Source of the DNA: Dictyostelium discoideum
Taxonomy: Eukaryota
Assembly (NCBI GenBank): GCA_000004695.1
Contig: CM000151.3
Location: 5,440,001 to 5,504,000 of the forward strand
Length of the DNA stretch: 64,000 bases
Reading direction: 5' to 3'
The notes beneath the pieces were generated by a model. That model ran no database searches. It was given only the letters and a program-made list of their open reading frames with translations, and was not told the origin of the DNA. The stretch's first letter is position 1. Each line of letters begins with the position of its first letter. Shown here in pieces: positions 43,235-48,130 of this stretch. The position numbers were made by a program, and so were the translations under genes.

Positions 43235-46200
43235 TTATTTTGGAGTTACTGTTGTTGGAGTTAAAATATTATTATTATTATCAGATAATTTAAATGGTGT
43301 CGTTAAAATTTTTTGATTATTTTTAGATTTAAGAGGAATATTTAGAGTTTGTGATAACATGAAAGAAAGATCGGGAATTTTTGACATAACTTCATTAAAA
43401 GGGCCATTTGAAACTGGTTTATGATCAATTCCTAATAATGTTGAGGGATCAGTACTACCAAGATTTATAGCTTTACTTGGTGGTGTTGGTATATTATCAA
43501 TTGATCCAAATGGTGATGTTAAATTTGTTGTTGTTGTTGTTGTTGTTGGTGTTGTTGTATTTGTTGTAGTAGAAGTAGTGGTATTATTATTATTATTAGT
43601 TGTTGTTGTTGTTGTTGTTGTTGCTGTTGTTGAAGTATTAGTTAAATTATTTATTGAATTAAGTGGTGGTACATTTGGAATTGAAATATTTACTGCAGAT
43701 GCAGAAGATGGAGATAAAGGAATATTTGAAGAATTTAAAGAAACTGTTGTAATTGAACCACCTGAACCTGTTAATGTTGTTGATGAAATAGTTGGAGAAA
43801 TGCCAGTTGTTGGTGCTAATACTTGAGGTTTTAATGCTTGATGAATCTTTTCATGTTCCAATTGTTTAATCTAAAAATTTTAAAATTTATTAATAATAAT
43901 AATAATTAAAATATTTTAATATATATTTATTTTTTTATTTTATTCTATTCAATTTTATTATTTTTAAATACTTACTAAAATTTTAATTTCATTTGATAAA
44001 TGGAAAGATTCAGTAAATTGTTTTTCAATTAAAGTATTTTTTAAAATTAATGGTTCAGGTGTAACAGTGAATGATGATTGAATAGGTCTATTATAAATTG
44101 ATTTTTCTATTGATGATTGTTGTAATAAATCTTTAAGATTTATAATTTTATTTGATTTTTCATCACTTGACGAGTTGTTGTTGTTGTTGTTGTTGTTGTT
44201 GTTGTTGTTGTTGTTGTTGTTGTTGTTGTTGTTGTTGTTGTTGTTGTTGTTGTTGTTGTTGTTGTTATCGTTGGTAGTAGTACTACCAAAACAATTTTGA
44301 ACATTAATTAATTGATCAATATTCAATTTAATTTGATTAATATTTGATCTTTGTTGTGATAATGCTATAGAATTTGAAGAGGGTTGTTTTTGTTTTGGTT
44401 GAGGTTTTTGTGATGTACCAGCTAGTGCTGGAGCTAGATTTGGTGATGATCCAAAAGTATCAAAATCGTCAGTTGATTTTTCATCAAAATCACCAAATCC
44501 ATCATCTTCAATTGGTGAAGCTGGTAGTTGTTGTAGTTGTTGTTGTTGTTGTTGTTGTTGTTGTTGTTGTTGTTGTTGTTGTTGTTGTTGTTGTTGTTGT
44601 TGTTGTTGTTGTTGTTGTTGTTGTTGTTGTTGTTGTTGTTGTTGTTGTTGTTGTTGTTGTTGTTGTTGTAATGGAGCATTAGTAGTAATTCCTTGTTGTG
44701 GTAGTGGAGGTGGTTCATTAAATTCACCAAATTCACCAAATTCATCATCATTGTTGTTATTATTAAATTCACCAAAATCGCCAAAATCATCATTGCTATT
44801 GTTATCGGTAGTTTCTTTAAAATCACTAAACCCATCATTATAAATAGTTTGTTGTTGTGATGGTGGTGATGGTGGTGGTGGTGGTGGTGGTTGAGATAAT
44901 GGTGGTGTTAAAGATTTTTCTACTTTTTCACCATCGTCATCATCATCATCATTATTATTGTTATTATTATTATTATTTACATTTTTATTAAAATCTTGAT
45001 CATCACTATCGTCAAAATTAATGGCAGAAGTTTCTGGTTCATCTTTGAAATTAACATTTGATTTAAAATCTTCAAAACTATCATTAAAATCGTCTTTCTT
45101 TTTTGTTTCTTGGTTATCACTATTATTAATTCTATTATCATTTGATGATTTAGAAAATGAATTAAAATCATCATCATTATTATTATTATTATTATTATTA
45201 TTAATTTCTTTTACAGGTTCGCTAAAACTATTAAATTCATCATCATTTTCATTGAATGATTCATTTGATTTTTTAAAACTATTAAATTCATTAAATGGTT
45301 CATTATTTTGTTGTTCAATTTCTATTGTTGGTTTTATAGGTTCACTAGTAAAGTTATTAAATTCATCAAATGATTCATCATTATTTTCATTATCAAATGG
45401 TGGTGGTTTTGGCGATTGAAATGTAAAGTCAACTTCATTTTCATTAGTCTCTGATGATTTTGTTGTTGTTGTTGTTGTTGTTTTATTTGTTGGTTCATCA
45501 AAATTTCCAAATGTTTGATCATCATTTCCTGTTGTTGGTGTTGAAAAATTATCAAATTCATCATGATTGCCACTTGATTTTTGTTGTAATTGATGTTGTT
45601 CTGTAAAGTCAAATTCAAAATCTTTTTCATTTTCTTTAATTTCTTTTGTTTCTATATTTGAAGAAGTGAAATCAAAATCATTATTATTATTATTATTATT
45701 ATTATTATTATTATTTGTTTCTTTATCTAAAGATGGTTTTGATTCACTAAAATCACCAAAATCATCTTTATCATTAACTAGGCTTATTGGTGTTGAAAAA
45801 TCATCAAATCCATTATTATTATTATTATTATTATTATTATTATTATTATTATTATTATTATTATTATTTTGTGTCGAGAAATCAAAATTACCAGTTGTCA
45901 TATTTGTTGTTGCTGTTGAAAATGAATCAAAATCATTGTTTTCACTGTTTACATTATTTACAGTAGAGGATGAAAAACTAAAATCGCTATCTTTTTCTGT
46001 CACCTCTGGTGTATTATTTGTTTTTGTTGGATTGAATTCATCGTTATTTTTATTATTATCAGTTGTTGTTGTTGTTGGTGGGGTAGTAAAGCTTTCAAAC
46101 TCATCATTTTCATCATTTTTACTGTTATTGTTATCATTATTATCAGAGTTTGTTGGTAAAGTGAAGTTTTCAAATTGGACGTTATTATCATCAATAGATG

Positions 46201-48130
46201 GTTCTGTGGTTTGTTCAGTAAAGCTATTAAATTTATCGCTATCTTTTTTATCCGTGGTTGTTGGTACAGTAAAGCTTTCAATTTCATCCTTTTCATCTTT
46301 ATTATTATTATTATTATTGATAGTAGCTGTAGTGAAACTTTCAAATTGATCCTTCTCATCTTTATTACTATTGTTGTTATTATTATCACTATTGGTCGTA
46401 GGTGTAGTAAAACTTTCAAATTCATCATTGGTTGTTGTTGGTGTAGTAAAGCTTTCAAATTCACCCTTTTCATCTTTATTGCTATTGTTGCTGCTATTAT
46501 CATTATTGGTTATTATTGTTGTTGTAGTAAAGCTTTCAAATTCATCCTTTTCATCTTTACTACTATTGTTACTATTATCATTATTGGTTGTTGTTGTTGT
46601 TGTTGGTACAGTAAAGCTTTCAAATTCATCCTCATTATTATTATTATTATTATTATTATTATTATTATTATTATTATTATTATTATTATTATTATTATTA
46701 TTATTATTATTATTATTATTATTATTATTATTATTATTGATAGTAGCTGTAGTGAAACTTTCAAATTGATCCTTTTCATCTTTATTACTATTGTTGTTAT
46801 TATTATGATTGTTGATAGTAGTTGTAGTAAAACTTTCAAATTCATCATTGGTTGTTGTTGGTGTAGTAAAGCTTTCAAATTCATCATTGGTTGTTGTTGG
46901 TGTAGTAAAGCTTTCAAATTCATCCTTTTCATCTTTATTACTATTGTTGCTGCTATTATCATTATTAGTTATTGTTGTTGTTATTGTAGAAAAGCTTTCA
47001 AATTGATCCTTTTCATCTTTATTGCTATTGTTACTGCTATTATCATTATTGATTGTTGTTGTTGTTGTTGTTATTGGTGCAATAAAGCTTTCAAATTGAT
47101 CCTTTTCATCTTTATTGCTATTGGTGCTGCTATTATCATTATTGGTTGTTGTTGATGTTGTTGTTGGTGTTGTTGTTGTTGTTGTTGGTACAGTAAAGCT
47201 TTCAAATTCATCTTCATTATTATCATTATCATTATTGGATGTTGTAGTGAAACTTCCAAATTCTTTCTTTTCGTCATCATTTTCACCATTTTTGTTGCTG
47301 TTATCATCAATAGAGTTATTATCAATAGATGCCACAGGTGTAGTAAATCTTTCAAATTGATCTTTGGTAGCATTTGATGAAGTGAAATCAAAACCTACAT
47401 TATTGTTGTTTTCCACCGCTGATGTAGAAAAATTACCAAATTCATCATCTTCATTTGAAGTTGGGTTTGAGGTTGTAAAATCTATTGTATATTTATTATT
47501 TTTATTATTATTATTAACATTTTGTGAGGTTGAAAAATCACCAAATTCATCATCACTTTTTTCTTTTGGTTGTTGAGGATTTGAAAAATTTGAAAAATCA
47601 TCAAATGAATCATTATTATTAGAATTTGTATTTGAAAAATTTGAAAACTCACTATCACCATTATTGTTATTATTATTGTTGTTGTTGTTGTTGTTATCGC
47701 TATTAAATGTAATGGGTGATGATTTTTCAGATTCATTTAATGGGGGTGGTTCAGAGAAATCTCCAAATGAATCATCTTCATTTTGTTTTGATCGTGGTTG
47801 GTTTGATGTTGTCAAATTATTTGAACTAAAATCACCAAAATCTAAAAAATTACTTGTATTATTATTACTGCTATTGCTATTATTTTCTTTTCTTTGTGGT
47901 GTTGGTGAGCTAAATGGATCAAAATCATCAAATAATAAATTATTATTTTTACTGCTATCACTGTTTTGGTTATTACTATTATTATTATTGTTATTATTAC
48001 TATTATTATTATTATTATTATTATTATTATTATTATTATTATTATTATTATTATTATTATTATTATTATTGTTATCTGATGTACTACTTAAATCACCAAA
48101 GTTAAAATCAAAATCATTTGGTGTGCTCAT
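43235..48130 (-). CDS. Giant acidic low-complexity protein of about 1,596 aa. It carries dozens of tandem acidic di-phenylalanine motifs ([DE][DE]F[EGND][SDN]F, including FGDF, DPF and DxF types), long poly-N and poly-Q tracts and Thr/Ser-rich spacers. Exons: 48130..43976, 43870..43235.
   Basis: ORF 43964..48130 ends at ...NEIKIL, directly followed by a GTAAGT donor. The acceptor tttttag|ATT AAA CAA joins in phase 0 to ORF 43235..43861. Coding tandem repeats of about 100 to 130 bp at 46200..47250 encode ...NNDNSSNNSNKDEKDEFESFTTPTTT... units. Motif examples: DDFDPFSS, DEFGDFS, DDFGDFS, DFGDFGEFN, DEFESFT (more than 15 copies) and DEFNSFS. The overlapping ORFs on both strands inside this span are low-complexity artefacts. 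Confidence 0.7.

Follow-up and report, generated by a model that had tools for sequence, protein, structure and literature searches.

A Dictyostelium discoideum protein with an array of 46 acidic FxxF motifs: a probable AP-1/GGA accessory protein of the aftiphilin/Laa2 type

AP-1 traffic is regulated by the conserved HEATR5 proteins, whose AP-1-binding cofactors evolve rapidly. In yeast, Laa2 is the cofactor by which the HEATR5 protein Laa1 binds AP-1; Laa2, Lft1, aftiphilin and CLBA1 are all fast-evolving and bind the HEATR5 C-terminus via three short helices with disordered linkers between them, while binding to AP-1 has been assigned to motifs of the acidic FxxΦ type (PMC10798858). The cofactors are regarded as lineage-specific, with aftiphilin and gamma-synergin restricted to animals and Laa2 and Lft1 to fungi; clear homologs of aftiphilin and of Laa2 have accordingly been identified in animals only and in fungi only, respectively (PMC10798858), and an overt orthologue of Laa2 is not known from higher eukaryotes (PMC10690479). 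Here we describe a gene on the minus strand of chromosome 2 of Dictyostelium discoideum AX4, at positions 43235..48130 of a 64,000-nucleotide stretch (CM000151.3, 5,440,001 to 5,504,000; hereafter the window). On balance, its 1,596-residue product is probably an aftiphilin/Laa2-type accessory protein of AP-1 and GGA with an unusually large motif array, and a probable HEATR5 cofactor.

We read the protein in this way because several features occur together: an acidic FxxF array, orthologs in other dictyostelids, the terminal motif of aftiphilin, an architecture that recurs in other eukaryotes, a link to the Laa2 family PF17104, short helices and a clathrin-box-like segment. Literature searches returned no paper describing the D. 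discoideum gene.

Gene model, product and dictyostelid orthologs

The gene consists of two exons, both on the minus strand. Exon 1 (43976..48130) was taken from the list of open reading frames (ORFs), the sequence and its translation, and holds codons 1-1385 with the ATG at 48130..48128; exon 2 (43235..43870), read from the sequence, holds codons 1386-1596 followed by a TAA stop (43237..43235). The intron between them (43871..43975) has 105 nucleotides, runs from GTAAGT to TTTTTAG and is a GT-AG intron in phase 0. Across the junction, the spliced sequence NEIKIL-IKQLEHEKIHQALKP aligned with the unbroken AEILAMIKKHEHERINQPLKP of T. lacteum and with EDIIVMMKQFEHERISQPLRP of L003, in which the corresponding stretch lies in a single genomic ORF. 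Because the ortholog proteins are uninterrupted across the corresponding sequence, the splice junction was confirmed. An earlier note on this DNA, made from the letters alone, had given the same coordinates, strand, intron and length, and sequence and translation showed all of these to be correct.

The product contains 376 Asn, 200 Thr, 178 Ser, 142 Asp, 119 Phe and 106 Glu residues and no Trp, and its net charge is -160. The poly-N, poly-Q and Thr-rich linkers described earlier were all present, with poly-N tracts of up to 35 residues and a single poly-Q tract of 44 residues (44537..44668, minus strand; residues 1155-1198) located between the last two motif clusters. An exact look-up in a collection of 15 billion proteins did not return the 1,596-residue product; the model derived here may not be identical to the deposited one.

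Residues 1500-1596 were searched exhaustively with phmmer against 1.84 billion representative proteins. Exactly two proteins were returned, both dictyostelid, with E-values of 8e-12 and 2e-10. The orthologs are DLAC_05787 of T. lacteum (KYQ93155.1; 1,084 residues), which is annotated 'hypothetical protein', and EP01133_P014248 of Synstelium polycarpum (EukProt; 1,048 residues). A metagenome scan, for which the query (A3) was the C-terminal ~100 residues alone and held no FGDF, added a third, dictyostelid-like ortholog, the single 1,305-residue ORF L003. A word-indexed protein search, run with the masked C-terminus and with a three-species profile, missed both of the former orthologs though its collection contains them. 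We treat this search as blind to this low-complexity family and do not take its null results as evidence of absence.

The orthologs are strongly acidic, contain no Trp and carry 27-33 FxxF motifs each, or about 2-3 per 100 residues. Their dominant motif is DDFGDF, and exact FGDF occurs 4-16 times. The central arrays of the dictyostelids vary in number, in spacing and in unit sequence. Immediately upstream of the C-terminal region, two motif doublets were kept in position, with F7, D9, F10, F18 and F21 invariant in the dictyostelid alignment (A1), and the last ~250 aligned residues showed a mean column identity of 60%.

These comparisons bear on the possibility that the locus is a non-functional or mis-annotated low-complexity ORF, kept open by the AT- and repeat-rich composition of the genome. 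The extreme low complexity of the product (Asn at 376 of 1,596 positions), the long ORFs present in other frames of the same DNA and the missing exact match among 15 billion proteins are what would be expected of a spurious ORF. However, this explanation was effectively refuted by the orthologs, since T. lacteum, S. polycarpum and a metagenomic dictyostelid all have proteins of the same architecture. The conserved C-terminal region, the phase-0 GT-AG intron with a junction backed by homology and an FxxF enrichment far above composition point in the same direction, and we give the explanation almost no credence.

The acidic FxxF array

The array comprises 46 FxxF motifs with the consensus [DE][DE]F[EGD][SDN]F[ST], distributed over residues 67-1226 (44453..47932, minus strand). 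Expected motif numbers were obtained from 1,000 composition-preserving shuffles of the protein, in which FxxF occurred 8.7 times on average and 19 times at most. The form [DE]FxxF was found 28 times vs 1.4 expected, and the pattern put forward in the earlier note, [DE][DE]F.[SDN]F, 17 times vs 0.1 expected. Successive Phe residues were exactly three positions apart in 46 of 118 gaps, an acidic residue was present at positions -3 to -1 in 42 of the 46 motifs, and the position-specific consensus was [NE][NDK]-D-[ED]-F-[EGD]-[SDN]-F-[TS]-[TE]-P. The acidic di-aromatic array proposed from the sequence was thus borne out, and the description of the product as a long acidic disordered protein with multivalent short linear motifs was supported. 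As in aftiphilin, the acidic FxxΦ motifs lie upstream of the helical region. The 42 acidic-flanked motifs agree with the loose form of the gamma-ear motif, FxxΦ in an acidic context (PMC10798858), which makes them candidate gamma-ear ligands.

The FGDF-type motifs had been read in the earlier note as ligands of NTF2-like domains of the G3BP type, and the protein as a multivalent scaffold or condensate seed; on this reading, the condensate would be a ribonucleoprotein one. FGDF is an established ligand of the G3BP NTF2-like domain (PMC4450067), the D. discoideum protein contains six exact copies vs 0.0 expected from the shuffles, its orthologs contain them as well, and linkers rich in N and Q are in keeping with condensate behaviour. 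Binding of FGDF to G3BP, however, requires both Phe residues and the Gly, and a G-to-A substitution abolishes it (PMC4450067). Gly was missing at position +1 in 34 of the 46 motifs and FG.F was found in only 12, while the 13 recently amplified units of the coding minisatellite read FESF, so that the G3BP reading fits at most the six FGDF motifs among the 46. Moreover, DDFGDF, set among acidic residues in the same way, is what Laa2 and aftiphilin use to bind AP-1 (PMC10798858), and the C-terminal motif ties the family to aftiphilin and not to any G3BP partner. Pfam revealed no RNA-binding or stress-granule-related feature at E<=10, and a search for a D. discoideum G3BP returned nothing specific. 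The G3BP reading was not supported by these data, and we consider it very unlikely.

A further explanation is that the protein is an endocytic scaffold of the Eps15/AP180/epsin type, whose motifs bind the AP-2 alpha and beta2 appendages at the plasma membrane. In keeping with this, D-x-F was found 38 times vs 10.6 expected, one DPF/DPY motif near the N-terminus and the clathrin-box-like LLGID near the C-terminus are conserved, and aftiphilin and gamma-synergin are also present in the AP-2 and AP-3 interactomes (PMC10798858). The motifs that define AP-2 ligands were nevertheless at or below chance level: DPF and FxDxF were each present once (0.6 and 0.8 expected, respectively) and WxxF was absent, and the enrichment of DP[FW], FxDxF or WxxF expected of AP-2 alpha-appendage ligands was not found. 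Because these counts equal those of the shuffles, the alpha-appendage motifs DPF and FxDxF are not a property of the D. discoideum protein. The excess of D-x-F is merely the acidic flank of FxxF, and no ENTH, ANTH, EH or other endocytic domain was detected with Pfam at E<=10. An AP-2 scaffold is improbable in our view. The appendage-domain partners suggested in the earlier note were supported as a class, an adaptor 'ear' being the best-supported one, but not through the motifs named for them, as DPF and FxDxF stand at chance level.

The sole DPF lies in the N-terminal motif LLFDDFDPFSSP (47903..47938, minus strand; residues 65-76). This motif has the form DD[FL]DP[FY] and reads FDDLDPYFSP in T. 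lacteum and LDDLDPFSSP in L003, while it is not conserved in S. polycarpum. The motif may have a function of its own, apart from the FxxF array.

Part of the array is encoded by a coding minisatellite, which was delimited with Tandem Repeats Finder and a repeat search. The block (46079..47215, minus strand; residues ~306-684) holds 13 units of the form K-D-E-K-D-[EQ]-FESF-TT. Its period is 39 bp at 46823..46924 and 75-93 bp, in about nine copies, at 46435..47161, and a 179-nucleotide block is duplicated 420 bp away with 93% identity. The coding minisatellite had been recognised correctly in principle, but its period is not the 100-130 bp proposed. The arrays in L004 and L003 are built from other repeats. 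In L004, a eukaryotic contig described below, a 204-bp tandem repeat is present in 3.2 copies with 95% identity and three FGDF per unit (197..847 of that contig), and in L003 a 48-bp repeat is present in 1.9 copies (2621..2712). The share of FG[DE]F among all FxxF motifs is 19/33 in T. lacteum, 19/28 in L003 and 10/10 in L004. The arrays have expanded independently in each lineage by different tandem duplications, and such lineage-specific repeats suggest recurrent selection on the number of motifs and not on their position. Within the otherwise regular D. discoideum array, we also observed one decayed motif at 46283..46285 (residue 616), where the unit reads KDEIESFT instead of KDEFESFT and has lost its first Phe.

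The C-terminal region and its similarity to aftiphilin and Laa2

A conserved and partly helical region spans about the last 250-350 residues. The earlier note had stated that the product has no recognisable folded domain and is made only of motifs; the first part is correct for Pfam, which returned nothing at E<=10 for the whole D. discoideum protein or for pieces of it, but the second part overlooked this region. The AlphaFold2 (AF2) model of the C-terminal region was mostly disordered, with a mean predicted local distance difference test score (pLDDT) of 49 and several short helices. The best-predicted part (pLDDT 71-78) covered LIEKQFTESFHLSNEIKILIKQLEHEK, and a further helix pair was seen at FNEVMSKI-PD-LSFMLSQTL. 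No fold search was made with the model because its mean pLDDT was too low, and sequence searches of the PDB, for which the dictyostelid profile and a real aftiphilin served as queries, revealed no relevant structure.

Five segments stand out in this region, all on the minus strand. The first conserved helix, NINQIKLNIDQLINVQNCF (44288..44344; residues 1263-1281), was identified from alignment A1, the AF2 model (helix 59-72 of the query), MAFFT and hhalign, and aligned weakly with aftiphilin LLNRLERIFEACFP and with LLSRLQAKFPF of L004. The second helix, NLKDLLQQSSIEKSIY (44093..44140; residues 1331-1346), was supported by A1, AF2 and the alignment. It is followed by the conserved segment formed by FTVTPEPLILKNTLIEKQFTESFHLS and NEIKIL-IKQLEHEKIHQALKP (43826..44071; residues 1354-1400), which runs across the intron and contains the best-predicted helices. 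The clathrin-box-like segment KAINLGSTDPSTLLGIDH (43421..43474; residues 1518-1535) includes LLGID, which alone in the protein fits the clathrin-box pattern LΦxΦ[DE]. The surrounding INLG..[PT]S[ST]LLG[ILV]D is nearly invariant, LLG[ILV]D being kept in four of four dictyostelid sequences, and it resembles the colinear GGSTLLNLDFF of aftiphilin, which is itself absent from about half of the aftiphilins fetched. The last segment is the C-terminal motif PFNEVMSKIPDLSFMLSQTLNIPLKS (43325..43402; residues 1542-1567), which has the form ΦPDL[ST]FM..(x)L..P and was delineated by phmmer, alignment A2, hhalign, shuffle tests and the metagenome scan.

This terminal motif connects the protein to aftiphilin. 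A human aftiphilin sequence served only as bait, and all comparisons were made with real database sequences that it retrieved. These were 52 entries with the name aftiphilin or AFTIN, most of which carry PF15045, the aftiphilin clathrin-binding box that covers helical regions HR2-HR3. In the alignment of the fetched sequences, all vertebrate aftiphilins that reach the C-terminus ended in LPDL[ST]FMxAKVLMFP, and those of fish and frog read LPDLSFM, which is identical to the Dictyostelium core. The motif is present in the D. discoideum protein as KIPDLSFMLSQTLNIP (residues 1549-1564). When the dictyostelid and aftiphilin profiles were compared with hhalign, exactly the terminal motif was aligned, with a P-value of 0.0015; with a broader non-vertebrate profile the P-value was 7.6e-4. 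Against an aftiphilin hidden Markov model (HMM), the three real dictyostelid tails, terminal motif included, outscored 992-1000 of 1,000 shuffles, and local alignment with cheap gaps to real aftiphilins gave z-scores of 2.0-4.8 relative to shuffles.

Weaker similarities were found upstream and in the same order in both families. Sub-optimal and global hhalign alignments were colinear over the FGDF pair, the first helix, an S-L-K-x-L-L segment, a K..h..S-L-x-h segment, an E..PLKP segment and the terminal motif. The corresponding pairs are NIDQLINVQNCF and NRLERIFEACF, NLKDLL and SLKHLL, K..IEKQF..S.HL and SNKKLLCSLGI, and E.I.QPLKP and EPTKEPLKP. The order in MAFFT alignments was colinear too, and global hhalign gave a P-value of 0.0074. 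The similarity of the helices to aftiphilin HR1-3, colinear but unproven as it is, is suggestive and does not amount to demonstrated homology.

The same architecture recurred in eukaryotes outside the dictyostelids. Along with L003, the FGDF-free query recovered L004 (Ga0315298_1112159), a GC-rich eukaryotic contig with a GT-AG intron, whose gene contains ten DDFGDF, then the segment LLSRLQAKFPF, which resembles the aftiphilin LLNRLERIFEACFP helix, and ends in KIPDLSFMLESKLVLPEK. L001 (Ga0186528_100587) is a 3.3-kb transcript-like contig from the Joint Genome Institute; its product of some 1,000 residues has many D[DT]FGDFG and ends in KIPDLSFMLSSDLVLPR; P0008, a weak match of the profile search, lies on this contig. 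The terminal ΦPDL[ST]FM..(x)L..P motif is thus common to vertebrate aftiphilins, L004 and L001/P0008. Since an FGDF array and a terminal PDLSFM occur together in vertebrates, dictyostelids, L004 and L001, convergence on a nine-residue motif alone can hardly account for their joint presence.

The link to Laa2 came from PF17104 (YBL010C/LAA2), the sole Pfam family touched by any member of the family. S. polycarpum scored 24.6 bits (E 3e-5) vs a gathering score of 24.7, and sub-threshold matches were obtained with L003 (21 bits) and with two weak hits of the profile search, P0009 (21) and P0007 (19.9), whereas the D. discoideum protein gave no match. As a separate observation, in P0009, a partial protein sequence from the fungus Entomortierella lignicola, about ten D[DG]FGDF precede VENYVLEKLAALYP and FQWKYSNLRKEYYASLGM, and the second of these resembles aftiphilin YQWGGSHSNKKLLCSLGI. 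P0009 is probably a Laa2-like protein of Mucoromycota and may link the cofactors of fungi with those of animals.

Our data establish the gene model, the enrichment of the motifs, the orthologs, the conserved C-terminus, the shared terminal motif and the recurrent architecture. Several other results weigh against an aftiphilin/Laa2-type protein. The hhalign probability was only 17-30%. When the terminal motif was removed, the scores of the tails against the aftiphilin HMM were equalled by 301-951 of 1,000 shuffles, and because no HMM signal was left without this motif, the statistically supported similarity to aftiphilin is confined to the terminal ~20-30 residues. PF15045 gave no match at E<=10 in D. 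discoideum, T. lacteum, S. polycarpum, L003, L004 or L001. Aftiphilins carry WxxF motifs such as DWNAFEDE and SWAAFGD, whereas the proteins of D. discoideum, T. lacteum, S. polycarpum and L003 are free of Trp. The PF17104 matches vanished once the FGDF motifs were trimmed, and they therefore mainly recognise DDFGDF and the helix that follows it. The majority motif of the D. discoideum array, FESF, has no Gly at position +1, and the strict gamma-ear form [FW]G[PDE][FWLM] fits only 10 of its motifs. The pattern [DE][DES][DEGAS]F[SGAD][DEAP][LVIMFD], which we take to be the gamma-ear (GAE) entry of ELM, fits five motifs vs 0.0 expected, so that most motifs deviate from it. To our knowledge, no function has been established for the terminal motif of aftiphilin.

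The same results leave room for an acidic-aromatic disordered protein with another partner, for instance an activation-domain-like protein or the ligand of a hub, in which PDLSFM would be convergent or unrelated to AP-1 and HEATR5. The shortness of the segment supported as similar to aftiphilin, the lack of qualifying PF15045 and PF17104 matches and the deviation of most motifs from the strict gamma-ear consensus all fit such a protein, and clusters of acidic and aromatic residues are generally known to be recognised by many unrelated domains. However, an FGDF array combined with the terminal motif is present in at least four separate lineages, one of which was found with a query free of FGDF, the weakly similar segments are colinear with those of aftiphilin, and Pfam detected no DNA-binding or nuclear feature at E<=10. 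We therefore regard another partner as unlikely and favour an AP-1/GGA accessory protein of the aftiphilin/Laa2 type. The claim of homology to aftiphilin and Laa2 still needs confirmation by deep profiles or structure.

Proposed function, genomic context and comparison with known systems

We infer from the family context that the protein binds gamma-ear and GAE domains, HEATR5 and clathrin. In the mechanism we propose, the disordered N-terminal and central part would display the ~46 acidic FxxF motifs, of which DDFGDF would be the ancestral form, and each motif would act as a low-affinity ligand of the AP-1 gamma-adaptin ear and the related GGA GAE domain. The C-terminal helices, the clathrin-box-like LLGID and ΦPDLSFM would anchor the protein to clathrin and to a partner, for which the C-terminal part of HEATR5 (p200/Laa1) is the most likely candidate. 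The protein could thereby bridge HEATR5 to many AP-1 and GGA molecules on the trans-Golgi network (TGN) and endosomes, its high valency offsetting the weak affinity of single motifs. The array would grow and shrink by tandem duplication of coding minisatellites, a process that may have yielded the FESF variant in D. discoideum.

A broader proposal unites aftiphilin, Laa2 and the dictyostelid protein in a single family of HEATR5 cofactors that would be ancient and pan-eukaryotic and whose hallmarks would be a DDFGDF array able to expand, a small number of short helices and a terminal ΦPDLSFM. The D. discoideum array would then have been driven to about 46 motifs, letting one molecule cluster dozens of AP-1 and GGA ears as a condensate-like nucleator of clathrin coats at the TGN and endosomes, with selection acting on valency and not on motif position, and with valency tuned by minisatellite expansion. 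We put this forward tentatively and regard it as possible but rather doubtful. If true, it would contradict the view that HEATR5 cofactors are lineage-restricted.

Most likely, the protein is a member of the AP-1/HEATR5 accessory proteins and does not represent a new principle; its array is exceptionally large and shaped by a minisatellite. If the AP-1/GGA assignment is true, the dictyostelid protein would give Amoebozoa a candidate HEATR5/AP-1 cofactor, and the terminal PDLSFM would be an unstudied functional element of human aftiphilin. The terminal motif may also unite the fast-evolving HEATR5 cofactors, and, together with the presence of the same architecture in two further uncharacterised contigs, it would provide a short diagnostic signature by which such cofactors could be sought in other organisms. 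The genetic tractability and clear AP-1 phenotypes of Dictyostelium make the prediction directly testable, and the 46-motif array offers a natural case of how a valency set by a minisatellite affects coat assembly.

The neighbouring genes of the window are uninformative, and none has an evident link to the acidic FxxF protein. On the plus strand, a USP9X/UBP24-like deubiquitinase of 2,650 residues with UCH, ARM_UBP24 and ubiquitin domains lies at 2000..9952, a RabGAP of 1,081 residues with GRAM and TBC domains and an EF-hand at 20147..23392, and a TPR protein at 53095..54702. Also on the plus strand, at 42191..42952, a 2OG-Fe(II) oxygenase is represented by two adjacent ORFs, which are probably one gene split by an intron. 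A 1,357-residue ORF without a Pfam match is encoded on the minus strand at 55515..59588. Three of the neighbouring ORFs matched the D. discoideum AX4 entries DDB_G0275373, DDB_G0275377 and DDB_G0275419 exactly.

Compared with known systems, the D. discoideum protein shares features with several classes of motif-rich proteins. The G3BP-binding FGDF proteins, such as alphavirus nsP3 and USP10, contain the FGDF tetrapeptide that is present in six copies in D. discoideum, but they use one or two motifs with an essential Gly, whereas most D. discoideum motifs lack this Gly and the family context is that of AP-1. Eps15, AP180 and epsin likewise combine a long disordered region with many weak appendage- and clathrin-binding motifs that act by avidity. 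Their arrays, however, consist of DPF/DPW, FxDxF and DLL motifs, whereas DPF and FxDxF are at chance level in D. discoideum, and the likely adaptor is AP-1/GGA and not AP-2. Gamma-synergin, epsinR/Ent3/Ent5, p56 and rabaptin-5 are generally known to use repeated acidic DFxDF or DFGxΦ motifs for the gamma ear or GAE domain (cited in PMC10798858). These proteins have folded domains (EH, ENTH or coiled coils) and few motifs, in contrast to the D. discoideum protein, in which no such domains are present.

Laa2 resembles the D. discoideum protein in that acidic FxxΦ sequence is followed by short helical regions; in Laa2, one such motif mediates binding to AP-1 and the helical regions (HR1-3) bind the HEATR5 C-terminus. 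The organisation in the AF2 model, with short helices and disorder between them, is that described for Laa2, Lft1, aftiphilin and CLBA1. The two differ in that just positions 2-141 of the 292-position PF17104 profile were matched, while the D. discoideum protein has 1,596 residues, and the C-terminal half of the Laa2 profile gave no match of the PDLSFM type.

The closest resemblance is to aftiphilin (AFTPH), which acts in animals in the aftiphilin/p200(HEATR5B)/gamma-synergin complex. Both proteins are mostly disordered and carry acidic FxxF/FGDF motifs upstream of short helices. Both also have a clathrin-box-like segment, STLLNLD in aftiphilin and STLLGID in D. discoideum, and a ΦPDL[ST]FM..(x)L..P motif ~30-50 residues from the C-terminus, with the weakly similar segments in the same order. 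Aftiphilin differs in its PF15045 box, which is undetectable in the dictyostelid proteins, and in its few upstream motifs, as far as the fetched and mostly partial sequences show, compared with 46 in D. discoideum, where the motifs are set in poly-N, poly-Q and Thr linkers and partly encoded by a minisatellite.

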